Source: an uncultured Clostridia bacterium (GTDB taxonomy: Bacteria > Bacillota > Clostridia > Christensenellales > DTU072). Taken from it: DNA of 64,000 bases. Both the position numbers and the translations under genes were made by a program. The notes under the pieces were generated by a model. The model worked only from the letters and a program-made list of their open reading frames with translations, was not told the DNA's origin and did not search any database. This document shows positions 22,633 to 27,920 of this stretch, piece by piece. Within the stretch, counting starts at the first letter, position 1; the number at the start of each line of letters is the position of its first letter. The stretch lies in assembly GCA_944371785.1 (NCBI GenBank), contig CALVXZ010000001.1, positions 17,210 through 81,209 of the forward strand, written 5' to 3'.

Positions 22633-23358
22633 TTACATCTTGATCGACAATTTTGTCGCTATATCGAAAAATTTCCAAGGCGCGTCTTCCTTCGGAGGAT
22701 AAACCCTGAAAACAAGCTTTTCTTTTGTTACGGGATGCGGAAACCTTATTTCGGTAGCCCAAAGCGCCATATTGTAACCTTCGGGCGTTTTTGCGTTTCC
22801 GTATTTTACGTCGCCGAAAACGGGGCATCCGATGGTCTTTAACTGCACGCGGATCTGATGGCTGCGTCCCGTATAAATTTTTACGTCCAACAGCGCAAGG
22901 TTTTCGCGGGTTTCCAGAACGGCGTATTCCATCAACGCAAGTTTTGCTCCCTCCGTCGCTATCGGCACGCAATAGACGGTGTTCCTGGCTTCGTCTTTGT
23001 ACAGCGCGTTTTTCAAAAACGCTTTCTTTTCCTTAGGGATCCCCGTGGTGACGGTAAGATACCTTTTTTCGAACTCGCCCGATTTAATGCACTCCTGCAA
23101 GCGCGCCGCCGCCTTTGAGGTTTTCGCAAACACCATGACTCCGCCGGTGGGTCTGTCCAGACGGTGGACCAATCCCAGATAAGCTTCGCCGGGTTTGTCG
23201 TACTTGTCCTTTATATAGCGTTTTAACGCAGAAAGCAAATCGTCGTCGCCGCTTTGATCTTCCGCGACAGGCACGTTTTGCGGTTTTACGACCACCAGAA
23301 GATGGTTGTCTTCGTATACGATATTGATGTCGTTATAGTCTATCATTTTGTTTTCCAT
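22633..23358 (-). CDS. RluA-family pseudouridine synthase
   Basis: 241 aa. HRLDRPTGGVMVFAKT catalytic Asp motif and YTGRSHQIRVQL. There is no S4 domain. Confidence 0.9.
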   Translation of the reverse strand: MENKMIDYNDINIVYEDNHLLVVVKPQNVPVAEDQSGDDDLLSALKRYIKDKYDKPGEAYLGLVHRLDRPTGGVMVFAKTSKAAARLQECIKSGEFEKRYLTVTTGIPKEKKAFLKNALYKDEARNTVYCVPIATEGAKLALMEYAVLETRENLALLDVKIYTGRSHQIRVQLKTIGCPVFGDVKYGNAKTPEGYNMALWATEIRFPHPVTKEKLVFRVYPPKEDAPWKFFDIATKLSIKM

Positions 23359-23368
23359 ATCCGTTAAA

Positions 23369-24232
23369 TCAACCGAATGTAGTAAATGCGCTGGCGCCGG
23401 AGGGTAAAACGACGTTTTTCCTGCCGGTAGGCAATGCCAGCTCGTATGCTTCGGTATTACCTCTGCCGTTCAATGCTATGTCTATTATGTTTTTCGTCAC
23501 CGTGGGCTGCAGCCCCGTCGTGTACGAATTTATCAGGAAAAACAGCGGATCGTCGGACAATAGCGTCACGGTCTTTTTGACGAAATCGAACACGGTGTCT
23601 TCCAACTTCCATATCTCGCCTTTCGGACCCCTGCCGTAGCTGGGAGGATCCATAATCACCGCGTCGTAACGGTTTCCGCGGCGGATCTCACGTTCTACGA
23701 ATTTGATACAATCGTCCACTATGTAACGCATCGCCTTCTGCCCGAGCCCCGAAAGTACGGCGTTTTTGCCGGCGCGTTCGCACATCGCCTTCGCCGCGTC
23801 AACGTGAGTCACTTCGGCGCCTTCCTTTGCGCAAGCCACCGACGCACCTCCGGTATAAGCAAACAGATTCAGGACCTTTATCCGTCTGCCGGACGATTTT
23901 ATCAGATTCCGCATCTTAGACCAATTATATGCCTGTTCGGGGAATATACCGGTGTGCTTAAAGCCCATAAGCTTCAATACGAACCTCAGATCTTTCCAGG
24001 ATATCTCAAATTCGTCCGGAACTTTTTTCAGGTATTCCCAGCTGCCGCCGCCGGATCTGGATCTGCGGTAAACGGCGCTGAGTCCCGGGTATTTTTCCAT
24101 ATCGAAAGGCGCTTCCCATATCACCTGCGGATCGGGGCGCAGCAAGACGACAGATCCGAAGCGTTCCAATTTCATTCCGCCGCCGGTTTCTATGACTTCG
24201 TAATCTTTCCAATCGGATGCGAGAGCTATCAT
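23369..24232 (-). CDS. Class I SAM-dependent (rRNA-type, RlmI/YccW-like) methyltransferase
   Basis: The ORF track extends to 24445, but the ATG at 24232 (MIALASDWKDYEVIETGGG) overlaps the upstream stop as ATGA. LNLFAYTGGASVACA SAM motif and VIMDPPSYGRG. Confidence 0.8.
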   Translation of the reverse strand: MIALASDWKDYEVIETGGGMKLERFGSVVLLRPDPQVIWEAPFDMEKYPGLSAVYRRSRSGGGSWEYLKKVPDEFEISWKDLRFVLKLMGFKHTGIFPEQAYNWSKMRNLIKSSGRRIKVLNLFAYTGGASVACAKEGAEVTHVDAAKAMCERAGKNAVLSGLGQKAMRYIVDDCIKFVEREIRRGNRYDAVIMDPPSYGRGPKGEIWKLEDTVFDFVKKTVTLLSDDPLFFLINSYTTGLQPTVTKNIIDIALNGRGNTEAYELALPTGRKNVVLPSGASAFTTFG

Positions 24233-27024
24233 TGTTCGCTGTCGTCGTTTTGCAATATCTCTGTCGCCAAAGATTCGTATGCGGAGGTGTTGTCGATATT
24301 TTTCAGTACCGACCAGAATTCTTTCGCGTCGGTCTTGTGGTTTTCCCTGGCAAGCAGCCTGATTATGTTTATCAAACCGAATATAAGTTCGTGTCTGACG
24401 GCGTTTCTGGCGTTCTTGAAATCGGCGTAATCCAATTCCGTACAAAGATCGCCTTTATACAGCCTCAATATATTCCGCATGATCCGCACTTTTTCGGGAA
24501 GCGATTCGGTTTCCGAAAAATCGCGGCTCAGTTTCAAAAACCTGTGGTAGTCGCAGTTCAGATCTTCCAGGTGCAATACGTAAGTGGAGTTTATATATTC
24601 CAATTTAAACTTTATACCGTACTGCGTAAGCGTTTTCCTGATAATGTTGTTCGTGGTTTTCAGATTGTTTATCGCGGAATCGTAAACGTAGTCTTTCCAC
24701 ATATAATCGATGATGGCGTTGCGGTCCATACCGTTTTCGCCGGCAAGAATATAATACAGGAACAGTTCCTTGGATTTCCTGGTCTTCCATTGTATTTCCT
24801 TGCCGTGAGAAGTTATCGAAGTGACTCCGGCACCAAGCATCGTCACGTTCAGAATGCCCATATCGCTGCCGGAACCGTTTTTGGAATCTATCAGAGCCTT
24901 TATCTTCGATACGATCTCCGGTTCGATATTGTGCGATTCGGCTTCCTGTATGATGGGACCGAAAACCGCGGTATCGGTCAGCACCATTCGCATACCGTAA
25001 TTTTCGCTGCACCTTAAAATATTAGTCACTATGGAATCGACGTCGCGTATCCCGCCCTTCGCCAACAGACAGTTCGCCGCAAGTCCCATACTGTATAACC
25101 ATACGAACGAACGGTTTTCCGCCGCGTCTATCGCCAAGGTAGCGGCTTTGTAGCTTCTGGCGCGGTTGCCCTCTTTCAACGCAGCGTACGAATAGATCTG
25201 GAACATCATCGAACGGTATTTCGGCGCCATTGCTTCGGATTCGTGCAGATACAGATTCGCAAGTTTTTCGGCATAGGCGACGCGGTTGAACAAACAGTTC
25301 AGATAACACCTGACATATACCGTGAAATATCTTTCGAAGCCGAAATCACCCGTCATCATACTGCCGTATGCGAGATCGGAATATTTCAAAGCCGATTCCT
25401 CGTTGCCGTAGAAACTTTCCATCAACGCTTTAACCGAATACAGCATATGGATATCGTTGAACAGAGAGTTGTTTATAGCGTAGCTTAAAGCCTCGTCGAC
25501 CAGACTCTTCGTGCGTTTCAGATCGCCGTCGAAATAGTTCATGGCGATTATCCTTAACGGCACGACGTACAGAGGGAAGAGTTTCTTTATCCTCTCCGCC
25601 GTTTCCATCGATTTTCTGTAATTGCCTATACCGAAATAATAAGTTTCGATGTTTTCCATCAGCTTCAGCGACCAGAAATGTTCGTCGCCGCCGGGCGCGT
25701 TCAACGCCGCTTCAGCCTCCGAAACCGAAATTTTCCCGTGTCTCAGAGAATCGGGAGTGATATATTGCAAAACTTTCAGATAAAAAGCATCGTCGCCCGT
25801 AAATTGTTCCTTCAGACCGACGAAAAACGAATTCAGCGTTTCGATATCGCCTTTTTTCAGCATACAATATATTTTCAGATAGTTCGCGCACGCGACGGAA
25901 CGCGTGGTGCCTACCTTTTTCAACGATTCGATGATCCTGTCCGTTTCCTTTAACGCAAGATCGTAATTTTTATCCCGTTTGGCAAGTATGCACGCTCCCA
26001 ACAAAGCGGTAAACGGATATTCGGCGGGATCCGCGGATATCTGCATATCCAGGTGCGCCGCGATAAAATTCATAGAGTTGATGATCTCCTCGTCGGAACC
26101 GATTATCTTCTCCAAAGTCCTGTTCATCATCCCTGCGTCGCCGTGATCGTACGCAAAAGTCAATGCGTCGTAAGACGAGACGTGTCGGAAAAGATATTCG
26201 AACAGCCTGGATTCGACGGGAACGCCGACATAATCTCCCATATGGTGATTCAGCTGTCTGTCCCTTCCGGATAAATAATCCACGAGCTCCCTTTTCAGGA
26301 CATAGAATCCGCATCCCGAAGTATGCTTGCATTCGGTAAGATAACCGCCGTGCGCACGGCACAGCGCGTTGAGTCTGGGAATAGATTCTGGGGAAATTTC
26401 GTTCAGGATCCCGACGGGGAAAGCACCGTATTTACCTATATATTTCAACAAAGCGACGTCCTCTATCGGCACCGCCGTAAGATACATTTCCGGAGTGCAG
26501 AATTCGGAAGACGGCGGCAGAGAATCCTTATCGATAATACCGGGGCATTTGGGTTCCAATTTGACAACCGGGATATTCAGATAACAATCCGAAGACATCA
26601 CGACGCGCACGTTGGAAGGCGCTTTGGAAATCAAATAGACGTATTTTTCGAAAGTGCAGTCTTTGGAAAGCAGTTCCAGCCTTTCAAAAATCAAAAGTAC
26701 GTTCTTTTCCAACGATTTAAGATAATCCAGAACGACGCGGATACCGACGTCGGAACCGTTGTATTTGGAATCGCAGAACAGAATCTGTTTTATGCGCAAA
26801 AGTTTCGCGGGCTGATCGGAAAGAACTTTTTCCGCCAAAGTTATACAAAGCTGTCTTAGGTCGTCGACAGCGGCGTTGAACCTGTAACAATATTCGAATT
26901 TTTCGGACAGCTCCTGTAAAAAGCCTTCTTTGTCGTATTCGGACGGGGCAAACAAGAAAGTCGCCGTCTGATCCGACGCCACAATATCGTTAATCAAAGC
27001 GCTTATGCCCGTTTCAAGCTTCAT
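24229..27024 (-). CDS. Large SARP-type transcriptional regulator: P-loop-less N-domain, TPR-like repeats, C-terminal OmpR-type wHTH plus BTAD
   Basis: 931 aa. The C-terminal ~230 aa are LNVTMLGAGVTSITSHGKEIQWKTRKSKELFLYYILAGENGMDRNAIIDYMWKD...NNLKTTNNIIRKTL...YVLHLEDLNCDYHRFLKL...LRLYKGDL. This follows the SARP pattern of wHTH followed by a bacterial transcriptional activator domain. The middle is helical-repeat-like. No GxxxxGK[ST] motif is seen. Confidence 0.85.
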   Translation of the reverse strand: MKLETGISALINDIVASDQTATFLFAPSEYDKEGFLQELSEKFEYCYRFNAAVDDLRQLCITLAEKVLSDQPAKLLRIKQILFCDSKYNGSDVGIRVVLDYLKSLEKNVLLIFERLELLSKDCTFEKYVYLISKAPSNVRVVMSSDCYLNIPVVKLEPKCPGIIDKDSLPPSSEFCTPEMYLTAVPIEDVALLKYIGKYGAFPVGILNEISPESIPRLNALCRAHGGYLTECKHTSGCGFYVLKRELVDYLSGRDRQLNHHMGDYVGVPVESRLFEYLFRHVSSYDALTFAYDHGDAGMMNRTLEKIIGSDEEIINSMNFIAAHLDMQISADPAEYPFTALLGACILAKRDKNYDLALKETDRIIESLKKVGTTRSVACANYLKIYCMLKKGDIETLNSFFVGLKEQFTGDDAFYLKVLQYITPDSLRHGKISVSEAEAALNAPGGDEHFWSLKLMENIETYYFGIGNYRKSMETAERIKKLFPLYVVPLRIIAMNYFDGDLKRTKSLVDEALSYAINNSLFNDIHMLYSVKALMESFYGNEESALKYSDLAYGSMMTGDFGFERYFTVYVRCYLNCLFNRVAYAEKLANLYLHESEAMAPKYRSMMFQIYSYAALKEGNRARSYKAATLAIDAAENRSFVWLYSMGLAANCLLAKGGIRDVDSIVTNILRCSENYGMRMVLTDTAVFGPIIQEAESHNIEPEIVSKIKALIDSKNGSGSDMGILNVTMLGAGVTSITSHGKEIQWKTRKSKELFLYYILAGENGMDRNAIIDYMWKDYVYDSAINNLKTTNNIIRKTLTQYGIKFKLEYINSTYVLHLEDLNCDYHRFLKLSRDFSETESLPEKVRIMRNILRLYKGDLCTELDYADFKNARNAVRHELIFGLINIIRLLARENHKTDAKEFWSVLKNIDNTSAYESLATEILQNDDSEQ

Positions 27025-27053
27025 TCGTTCTCCTGCTCATTACCCTTTTCACA

Positions 27054-27092
27054 ACTATAATTTGGTAAATATATTGTAAATTAATCGTAAAT
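27054..27092 (-). promoter_or_regulatory. Promoter/operator of the SARP gene: -10 TATAGT preceded by three 11-bp-phased ATTTAC direct repeats
   Basis: Plus-strand GTAAAT occurs at 27065-27070, 27076-27081 and 27087-27092. The minus strand reads ATTTAC-N5-ATTTAC-N5-ATTTAC-caaat-TATAGT (27059-27054), followed 29 nt later by the ATG, with an AGGAGA RBS. Confidence 0.45.
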
Positions 27093-27263
27093 AAAAGTCA
27101 AGTGAATTCTCAGTGAACGTTGACGTTTTAATGAAAAATTCGACTAAGCACGCGCTATATTCGTTAGTAGCTTTGTTTTTATTGTGTTTTTTTCGGTAAA
27201 ACTTTTTCGTCTTAAACCGCTCACATTGCCGCCTTCTGCCGAATATATTGAGTCGAGGTGACA

Positions 27264-27512
27264 ATGAATATAAACGATTATATCCGCAAAAAAAGCCGAA
27301 ACAACCTCTCGCCCGAAGAAGCCGTCAAAAAATACGCCGCAATGGACGAACAGAGCCTGATGTCGGAGCTTTTCAAGACGGCGGCGGAAGGCAGAGCGTC
27401 GGGAGAACTCACCGACGAGGTCATAGACAATTTCTATACGACGGTGGCTCCGATGCTTTCCCCGGAACAATCCGAACGTATGCGCGAACTCATCCGCGAA
27501 CTAAAAAAATAG
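27264..27512 (+). CDS. Small charged helical protein of unknown function (82 aa)
   Basis: MNINDYIRKKSRNNLSPEEAVKKYAAMDEQSLMSELFKTAAEGRASGELTDEVIDNFYTTVAPMLSPEQSERMRELIRELKK. GAGGTG lies just upstream of the ATG at 27264. The ORF track start at 27258 is GTG. Its stop is 3 nt before the next ATG. Confidence 0.6.
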   Translation: MNINDYIRKKSRNNLSPEEAVKKYAAMDEQSLMSELFKTAAEGRASGELTDEVIDNFYTTVAPMLSPEQSERMRELIRELKK

Positions 27513-27515
27513 GTT

Positions 27516-27920
27516 ATGGATATTTCATCTCTGTTACCGCTGCTATTGATGCAAAACGGGTTGTTTTCGGGAAAGGATTCGTCGGGCGGAATGAACGCCG
27601 CGGACCTGATGCGACTTTTCGGGGCAATGAACGGCGGATCTAAAAATCCGTTTTCCGAAATGTTCGGAAACGCCGCTAACTTCGGATCGGGGACTTCGCC
27701 GTTTGCCAATATGTTCGGCAACAATCCGTTTTCGGGGGCATTCGGCAAAAACTCCGGATCCGCGGAACGGAATAACGGCGGATTCGGTAAAAGCGCCTAC
27801 CGCGCCGAAGAAAACCGCGGATATTCGTACAACAAGGACAACCCTTCGAAAGACAATCTGAACGCGATGTTCCCCGAAGAATTGTTGAAAATGCTGCGCA
27901 ACTTAAACCGCGGAAGATAG
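27516..27920 (+). CDS. FG/Asn/Gly-rich low-complexity protein of unknown function (134 aa)
   Basis: Hydrophobic N-terminus MDISSLLPLLLMQNGLF, then repeated xFGx units (LFGA, MFGN, NFGS, MFGN, AFGK, GFGK), then a basic C-terminus. Translationally coupled to the 82-aa ORF. Confidence 0.55.
   Translation: MDISSLLPLLLMQNGLFSGKDSSGGMNAADLMRLFGAMNGGSKNPFSEMFGNAANFGSGTSPFANMFGNNPFSGAFGKNSGSAERNNGGFGKSAYRAEENRGYSYNKDNPSKDNLNAMFPEELLKMLRNLNRGR

Follow-up and report, generated by a model that had tools for sequence, protein, structure and literature searches.

We identified an array of direct repeats in the promoter of a gene encoding a 931-aa regulator, which lies in a 64-kb stretch of DNA (64,000 nucleotides, hereafter the window) from a Clostridial gut bacterium. 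The repeats are embedded in a predicted near-consensus promoter, are found upstream of orthologues as divergent as 20% protein identity, and co-vary with the recognition helix of the adjacent regulator. We judge the chances to be about even that the regulator binds these repeats and represses its own promoter, a reading that was built from promoter and protein comparisons. The initial annotation of this locus had proposed positive autoregulation. Autoregulation fits the way in which the repeats track the recognition helix, but the positive sign is not supported, since the sites lie within a core promoter that looks strong.

On the minus strand, positions 27092..27054 read ATTTAC-gatta-ATTTAC-aatat-ATTTAC-caaat-TATAGT, which agrees with the three ATTTAC hexamers in exact 11-bp phasing that had originally been described. 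The first repeat (R1, 27087..27092) is located at approximately −26..−21 in the promoter spacer, and exactly 8 bp separate it from the −10 element downstream. The second (R2, 27076..27081, approximately −15..−10) shares its last three bases with the first three of the −10 element TACAAT, and the third (R3, 27065..27070, approximately −4..+2) lies over the predicted transcription start at about 27066. The repeat region is 41 bp upstream of the regulator ATG (27024). Abutting the −35 element is a clade-specific TTCAC-N6-TTCAC (27102..27117, minus strand), which consists of two pentamers (27102-27106 and 27113-27117) 11 bp apart. When both strands of the window were searched, ATTTAC-N5-ATTTAC-N5-ATTTAC had a single exact match, and 0.12 matches with up to three mismatches were expected by chance; two or more matches to the triple pattern were obtained in none of 100 shuffled sequences. 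Every match to TTYAC-N6-TTYAC in the window falls inside this one intergenic region. The repeat array is a non-chance feature.

The predicted core promoter, common to all orthologues, is a near-consensus sigma-A TTGACT-17-TACAAT (27101..27073, minus strand), which matched the sigma-A consensus at 10 of 12 positions in a consensus scan. Its −10 element TACAAT (27073..27078) is conserved in all orthologues, the −35 element TTGACT (27096..27101) is conserved at the optimal spacing of 17 bp, and GGAG within the AGGAG ribosome-binding site (RBS) of the regulator gene (27030..27034, minus strand) is invariant in the alignment. A different −10 element, TATAGT (27054..27059, minus strand), had been chosen in the initial annotation, which saw no good −35 element. 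TATAGT does start one further 11-bp step past the third repeat, leaving a gap of 5 bp, but it is present only in the window and in a group of 84% identity and is absent at 83% and 61–63% identity; it is probably part of the 5′ untranslated leader. The TTGACT at 17 bp, invariant across orthologues, had been overlooked, as had the TTCAC pair. In distant orthologues, the RBS or ATG comes only 6–18 nt after TACNAT, which argues that TACAAT is the true −10 element. The RBS directly follows the −10 element in L028, L021, and L029, and the regulator ATG is 6–7 nt after it in L042 (1488-1503) and L044 (about 1493-1504). The ATG position in L042 and L044 predicts leaderless mRNAs. As a lesson for annotation, promoter calling from a single sequence can mislead, here in the choice of TATAGT over TACAAT.

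It had also been suggested that the repeats replace the −35 element. Only R1 occupies the position used by SARP activators: the gap between R1 and the conserved TACAAT is 8 bp, but R1 is not the 3′-most repeat, since R2 overlaps the −10 element, including bases that sigma must melt, and R3 lies further downstream, covering +1. The TTGAC of the −35 element is itself repeat-like and precedes the R1 TTTAC by 10 bp, an offset that is fixed at 10 bp family-wide and is 11 bp in L009 and L012.

An RNA-element reading of this region was rejected, with no Rfam match at E ≤ 1 for 26800-27500 and a leader hairpin at the level of shuffled sequence (z = −0.13). Motifs for sigma-E, CtsR, and the Spo0A box were compared by eye only, and none fitted. 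Three orthologues of 61–63% identity (L006, L008, and L009) contain a perfect hairpin, CCGAAA-N3/4-TTTCGG, at the predicted mRNA 5′ end immediately downstream of R3; its counterpart in the window is weak and no better than shuffled sequence.

A word-indexed homologue search with the full protein retrieved only seven close relatives, whose loci were fetched, and word-indexed searches with the C-terminal fragment or with a 32-sequence alignment gave no further relatives. Among the best 150 of 637 matches of an exhaustive profile search were at least about 35 full-length members of the family, ~920 aa in length and with identities as low as 20%. Loci of the distant family members were obtained by a metagenome scan and by exact look-ups.

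Alignment of the upstream regions of orthologues of 84–61% identity revealed an invariant block of ~70 bp, TTCACnGAnAwTTCAC-TTGACT-TnnATTTACGAwTAATT-TACAAT-ATATTTACC, with the intergenic DNA outside it diverged. The repeat block was also found at 43% protein identity. Absence of the repeats upstream of orthologous regulators had been named in the initial annotation as evidence that would count against its proposal; both the repeats and their phasing proved to be conserved there. A family-wide core, TTGAC-N5-TTTAC-N6-TTTACNAT, is retained upstream of orthologues down to 20% identity, and TTGAC(T/A)-N4-TTTAC-N6-TTTAC[ACT]AT is kept upstream of nearly all family members obtained, including those of 20–33% identity. 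The core survives in the GC-rich L043 and in the apparently leaderless L042 and L044.

In an alignment anchored on the −10 element, the information content is high at TTGACTT, TTTAC, and TAATTTACAAT and drops between the pentamers, where 5–6 nt are variable; conservation in this profile peaks at (A/T)TTTAC[ACT]AT. This periodic conservation, high in TTTAC and low in the intervals, is the footprint expected of a protein contacting one helix face. R1 is not contacted by sigma, and its invariance thus needs an explanation other than RNA polymerase. The TTTAC of R1 keeps its position in 22 of the 23 loci whose regulators have the canonical recognition helix described below, including orthologues of 20–22% identity. 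The R1-R2 spacing is likewise conserved in 22 of these 23, the exception, L025, keeping the R2-R3 spacing instead.

R3 occurs in the close clade as well as in L015, L016, L017, L018, L020, L022, L025, and L040. It is absent from many other loci (L019, L021, L023, L024, L028, L030, and L042-L044) and therefore appears to be a clade-specific addition. The TTCAC pair was also identified in L015 and is absent from L016-L030. In L040, a TTCAC-N6-TTCAC (704-719) lies ~33 bp further upstream of the −35 element, so that its placement varies with respect to both promoters. The neighbourhood upstream of the regulator is unconserved across the family, while the promoter core is conserved. A tRNA-like sequence is located directly upstream of the regulator promoter in L017, L018, L023, and L024, and asd and dapA or dapB occupy this place in other distant loci.

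TTTAC-N6-TTTAC occurs at this promoter only in 255 kb from 21 distinct loci. A repeat search had been suggested as a way to define a regulon; it revealed no second exact TTTAC-N6-TTTAC in the 64-kb window and the fetched flanks, and the eight matches with one mismatch are at chance level (5.3 expected).

The regulator (24229..27024, minus strand) contains a P-loop-like N-terminus with a degenerate Walker A, a central region of predicted TPR-like helical repeats, and a SARP-fold domain at its C-terminus. This last domain, comprising wHTH and BTAD (residues 716-931; 24232..24879, minus strand) with the recognition helix DSAINNLKTTNNIIRKTL, was delineated using AF2 and Foldseek. Pfam, NCBIfam, and PDB sequence searches with the full protein and with its C-terminal 207 aa gave no match. 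The Pfam models Trans_reg_C (PF00486) and BTAD (PF03704) did not match the regulator even at E ≤ 10, neither was matched at E ≤ 0.01 by any of 32 family members, and a profile of the C-terminal domain returned nothing meaningful from PDB sequences. When 1.8 billion proteins were searched, the family profile matched the wHTH-BTAD of REC-wHTH-BTAD and STAND-TPR-wHTH-BTAD proteins (E 1e-15 to 1e-8). For residues 716-931, an AF2 model based on 23 sequences of the family reached a pLDDT of 91.4, and its top six Foldseek matches in the PDB were the SARP domains of AfsR (8hvr, 8k60) and EmbR (2fez, 2ff4), with E values of 8e-7 to 7e-6, TM scores of 0.59–0.65, and a probability of 1.0; OmpR/PhoB DNA-binding domains were the next fold matches. 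The C-terminal wHTH-BTAD that had been assigned to the regulator from sequence is borne out by the profile search and these fold matches, and according to the model the C-terminal domain is a SARP-fold wHTH+BTAD that is cryptic at the sequence level.

A full-length AF2 model built from seven sequences (pLDDT 60, and below 50 over residues 717-823) was unusable for the wHTH; at this low confidence, residues 290-715 are all-helical. TPR families match up to 12 of 32 family members, TPR_MalT matches five, and AAA_22 and AAA_16 match two; the window protein has no Pfam match. The Walker A motif of the window protein is a degenerate FAPSEYDKEGF (residues ~20-35; 26920-27000), and distant orthologues encode an intact FAPAGTGKTDF (e.g., L016) or FAPAGSGKTDF. 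From this comparison, the intact motif is ancestral and the motif of the window protein a degenerate form of it, and the ATPase switch may have been lost in this clade. A Response_reg (receiver) domain was not matched in the window protein and is found only in more distant relatives of ~370 aa. The layout of the family appears to be a STAND-like ATPase followed by TPR and a C-terminal SARP domain.

Invariant residues of the family cluster in the wHTH, foremost in the recognition helix SAINNLKTTNNIIR. Where this canonical helix is kept (I/V/L and T/S changes allowed), TTTAC-N6-TTTAC is present in the promoter at all 23 distinct loci; where it is altered, the repeats are present at none of four loci, namely L027 (KTNNN), L029 (NNNMR), and L038 and L039 (AMQNLRTTNNYIR). 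The association between helix and repeats (Fisher p = 5.7e-5) is based on post hoc classes and about three independent losses, uncorrected for phylogeny. Canonical-helix proteins that are just as divergent (20–22% identity) keep the repeats. Judged from these sequences, the co-variation of helix and repeats favours the adjacent regulator over an unrelated factor as the binder. L027 keeps TTGACA-18-TACTAT without any repeats, indicating that the promoter does not need them. The promoters of L038 (91-156) and L039 (200-220) are of the extended −10 type (TGnTATAAT) and lack TTGAC; L038 also contains two copies of TACATTAA at a distance of 20 bp, possibly representing another operator.

In the mechanism that we propose, the operator would be built into the core of TTGACT-17-TACAAT and would consist of the family core plus clade additions, i.e., the third TTTAC over +1 and the two TTCAC upstream. 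The C-terminal SARP-fold wHTH domains of the regulator would bind the TTTAC repeats head-to-tail on one helix face, and their occupancy would exclude or stall RNA polymerase, resulting in negative autoregulation of the operon. Repression would presumably respond to whatever is sensed by the N-terminal STAND/TPR part. It is favoured because the repeats overlie the spacer, the −10 element, and the start of a promoter expected to be active unaided. By analogy with SARP-activated promoters, an activating or dual role through the position of R1 is possible. More tentative, and on balance doubtful, is the broader proposal that the operator half-sites double as −35-like and −10 elements (TTGAC / TTTAC / TTTACAAT) and that a cryptic-SARP STAND/TPR family, widespread in Clostridia, autoregulates in competition with sigma-A. 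If true, this would represent a SARP-fold repressor acting by promoter mimicry, outside actinomycetes and secondary metabolism, and through this switch the expression of ribosomal-RNA modification enzymes would depend on some signal.

SARP-type activation is an alternative that we regard as unlikely. The regulator would then bind TTGAC (−35..−31) and R1 (−25..−21) as an afs-box-like pair centred near −29 and, making AfsR-like contacts with sigma region 4 and the beta flap, would activate its own operon; R2 would merely be the −10 element with a T-rich lead-in. [quoted passage not shown] Similar to these targets, the promoter studied here has direct repeats one helical turn apart, and R1, exactly 8 bp upstream of the −10 element, takes the position of the 3′ repeat of SARP-activated promoters, in agreement with the published rule and with an AfsR box at −40 to −19 (PMC10936776), although R1 is not itself the 3′-most copy of the array. 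The SARP fold of the domain and the repeat-like TTGAC at its nearly fixed offset are also consistent with activation. However, the −35 element, the spacer length, and the −10 element are near consensus in every orthologue rather than poor as in SARP targets, and the array reaches, through the TT at −14/−13 and, in many lineages, a third TTTAC at +1, into elements that must be occupied by RNA polymerase. Furthermore, the distance from TTGAC to R1 is 10 bp, not 11, and the promoter of L027 persists without repeats.

Even less probable, in our view, is binding of the repeats by another factor, such as an OmpR/PhoB-family response regulator encoded elsewhere, with the adjacent regulator merely its target. 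PhoP/OmpR-type boxes are TTxAC(A) direct repeats with a period of ~11 bp that are bound head-to-tail, and whether OmpR/PhoB boxes mediate activation or repression is set by their position relative to the core promoter. The TT(T/C)AC direct repeats found here, with their 11-bp period, would be generic sites for wHTH response regulators and resemble the TT(A/T/C)ACA repeats of Bacillus PhoP and the PHO boxes of Streptomyces and Mycobacterium (see PMC11825685 for context on such boxes). Against another factor, the motif is restricted to the promoter of this gene family in all sequence examined, it travels with the gene across differing neighbourhoods and GC contents, and it is lost exactly where the recognition helix of the regulator has changed. 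Unlike OmpR/PhoB boxes, which are regulon-wide, it forms a single gene-linked candidate operator within the 255 kb examined. Unlike OmpR/PhoB regulators, the regulator has no receiver domain or phosphorylation switch, and a BTAD follows its wHTH.

It is very improbable that no dedicated factor is involved and that the conserved DNA of the spacer and start site tunes RNA polymerase kinetics or DNA curvature, or stems from a phased T-tract, its repetition being incidental to a TTTACAAT −10 element. The −10 element largely explains R2, sigma explains the −35 element, and the spacers are AT-rich. However, the R1 pentamer is invariant while flanking spacer bases vary, it is retained in the GC-rich genome of L043, and it is missing where the recognition helix has changed; in addition, some clades have gained a third copy and still others in phase.

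With repression by the adjacent regulator as the preferred reading, the protein can be compared with known systems. To our knowledge, SARP regulators have been studied almost solely as activators of antibiotic pathways in actinomycetes. The domain identified here shares with SARPs (AfsR, ActII-ORF4, and DnrI; EmbR; 8HVR, 8K60, 2FEZ) an OmpR-type winged helix followed by a BTAD, and SARPs are its best fold match in the PDB. As in AfsR, a SARP domain is apparently joined to a STAND ATPase and TPR repeats in the regulator, but in the opposite order: it lies at the C-terminus here and at the N-terminus in AfsR, as in published SARP architectures (PMC10936776). Different from actinomycete SARPs, the domain has diverged beyond recognition by the Pfam models Trans_reg_C and BTAD, the repeat is TTTAC rather than TCGAGNN or the afs box, and the host is a Clostridial gut bacterium. 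MalT/LAL-type STAND factors are similar in their size of ~900 aa, N-terminal P-loop, and C-terminal DNA-binding domain, and MalT-like TPR matches occur in members of the present family; the regulator differs from them in having a SARP-type wHTH+BTAD instead of a LuxR-type HTH and, in the window protein, a degenerate Walker A.

The nearest sequence relatives of the C-terminal domain are Firmicutes REC-wHTH-BTAD and STAND-TPR-wHTH-BTAD proteins (e.g., P0051, P0053, P0060, and P0063), and two of these (P0060 and P0063) have the same layout of N-terminal ATPase, TPR, and C-terminal DNA-binding domain. Trans_reg_C and BTAD are recognisable by Pfam in these relatives, unlike in the regulator studied here, which has no receiver and a degenerate Walker A. 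We know of none of these relatives that has been characterised with a defined operator, and a literature search for characterised Clostridial STAND-BTAD regulators found nothing relevant. Clostridia from guts and digesters encode a STAND/TPR-like protein with a SARP-fold domain that is missed by standard domain libraries and is placed at the end opposite to that in known SARPs. The candidate operator, conserved to 20% identity, provides a directly testable DNA target for this uncharacterised family, and its SARP-type direct repeats appear to be embedded in a consensus promoter rather than to replace promoter elements.

Downstream of the regulator lie genes for a SAM-dependent (RlmI-like) methyltransferase (23369..24232, minus strand) and, as the next gene of the putative operon, a pseudouridine synthase (PseudoU_synth_2; 22633..23358, minus strand). 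The methyltransferase ATG overlaps the regulator TGA (ATGA, 24229-24232), which suggests that both belong to the same operon and implies translational coupling. The order regulator, methyltransferase, and pseudouridine synthase is conserved in orthologues down to ~21% identity. Because the operon is shared, autoregulation would also set the level of the RNA-modification enzymes. SARP pathways, by contrast, concern antibiotic biosynthesis, and the presence of rRNA methyltransferase and pseudouridine synthase genes in this operon is a hint that modification of the ribosome may be regulated.

Two small divergent ORFs (27264..27920, plus strand) are located on the other side of the repeats and encode proteins of 82 aa (27264-27512) and 134 aa (27516-27920). 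The former ends in RMRELIRELKK, the latter is Gly/Asn/Phe-rich and of low complexity, and neither was assigned to a family by Pfam (even at E ≤ 1) or NCBIfam. Homologous small-ORF pairs adjoin regulators of only 32–33% identity (L016 and L025). In L040 (31% identity), a divergent ORF pair resembles them in size. The pair in the window has its own promoter-like CTCACA-18-TATATT (27220..27249, plus strand) directly upstream of its RBS, and the TATATT/TATTAT/TACTAT element and its position are conserved. The initial annotation had regarded the control region as shared with the divergent pair; this conserved promoter of its own, its variable distance to the repeats, and the absence of the pair from many orthologues argue against shared control. 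The length of 233 bp given for that region holds with a GTG start at 27258 and becomes 239 bp with the ATG at 27264.
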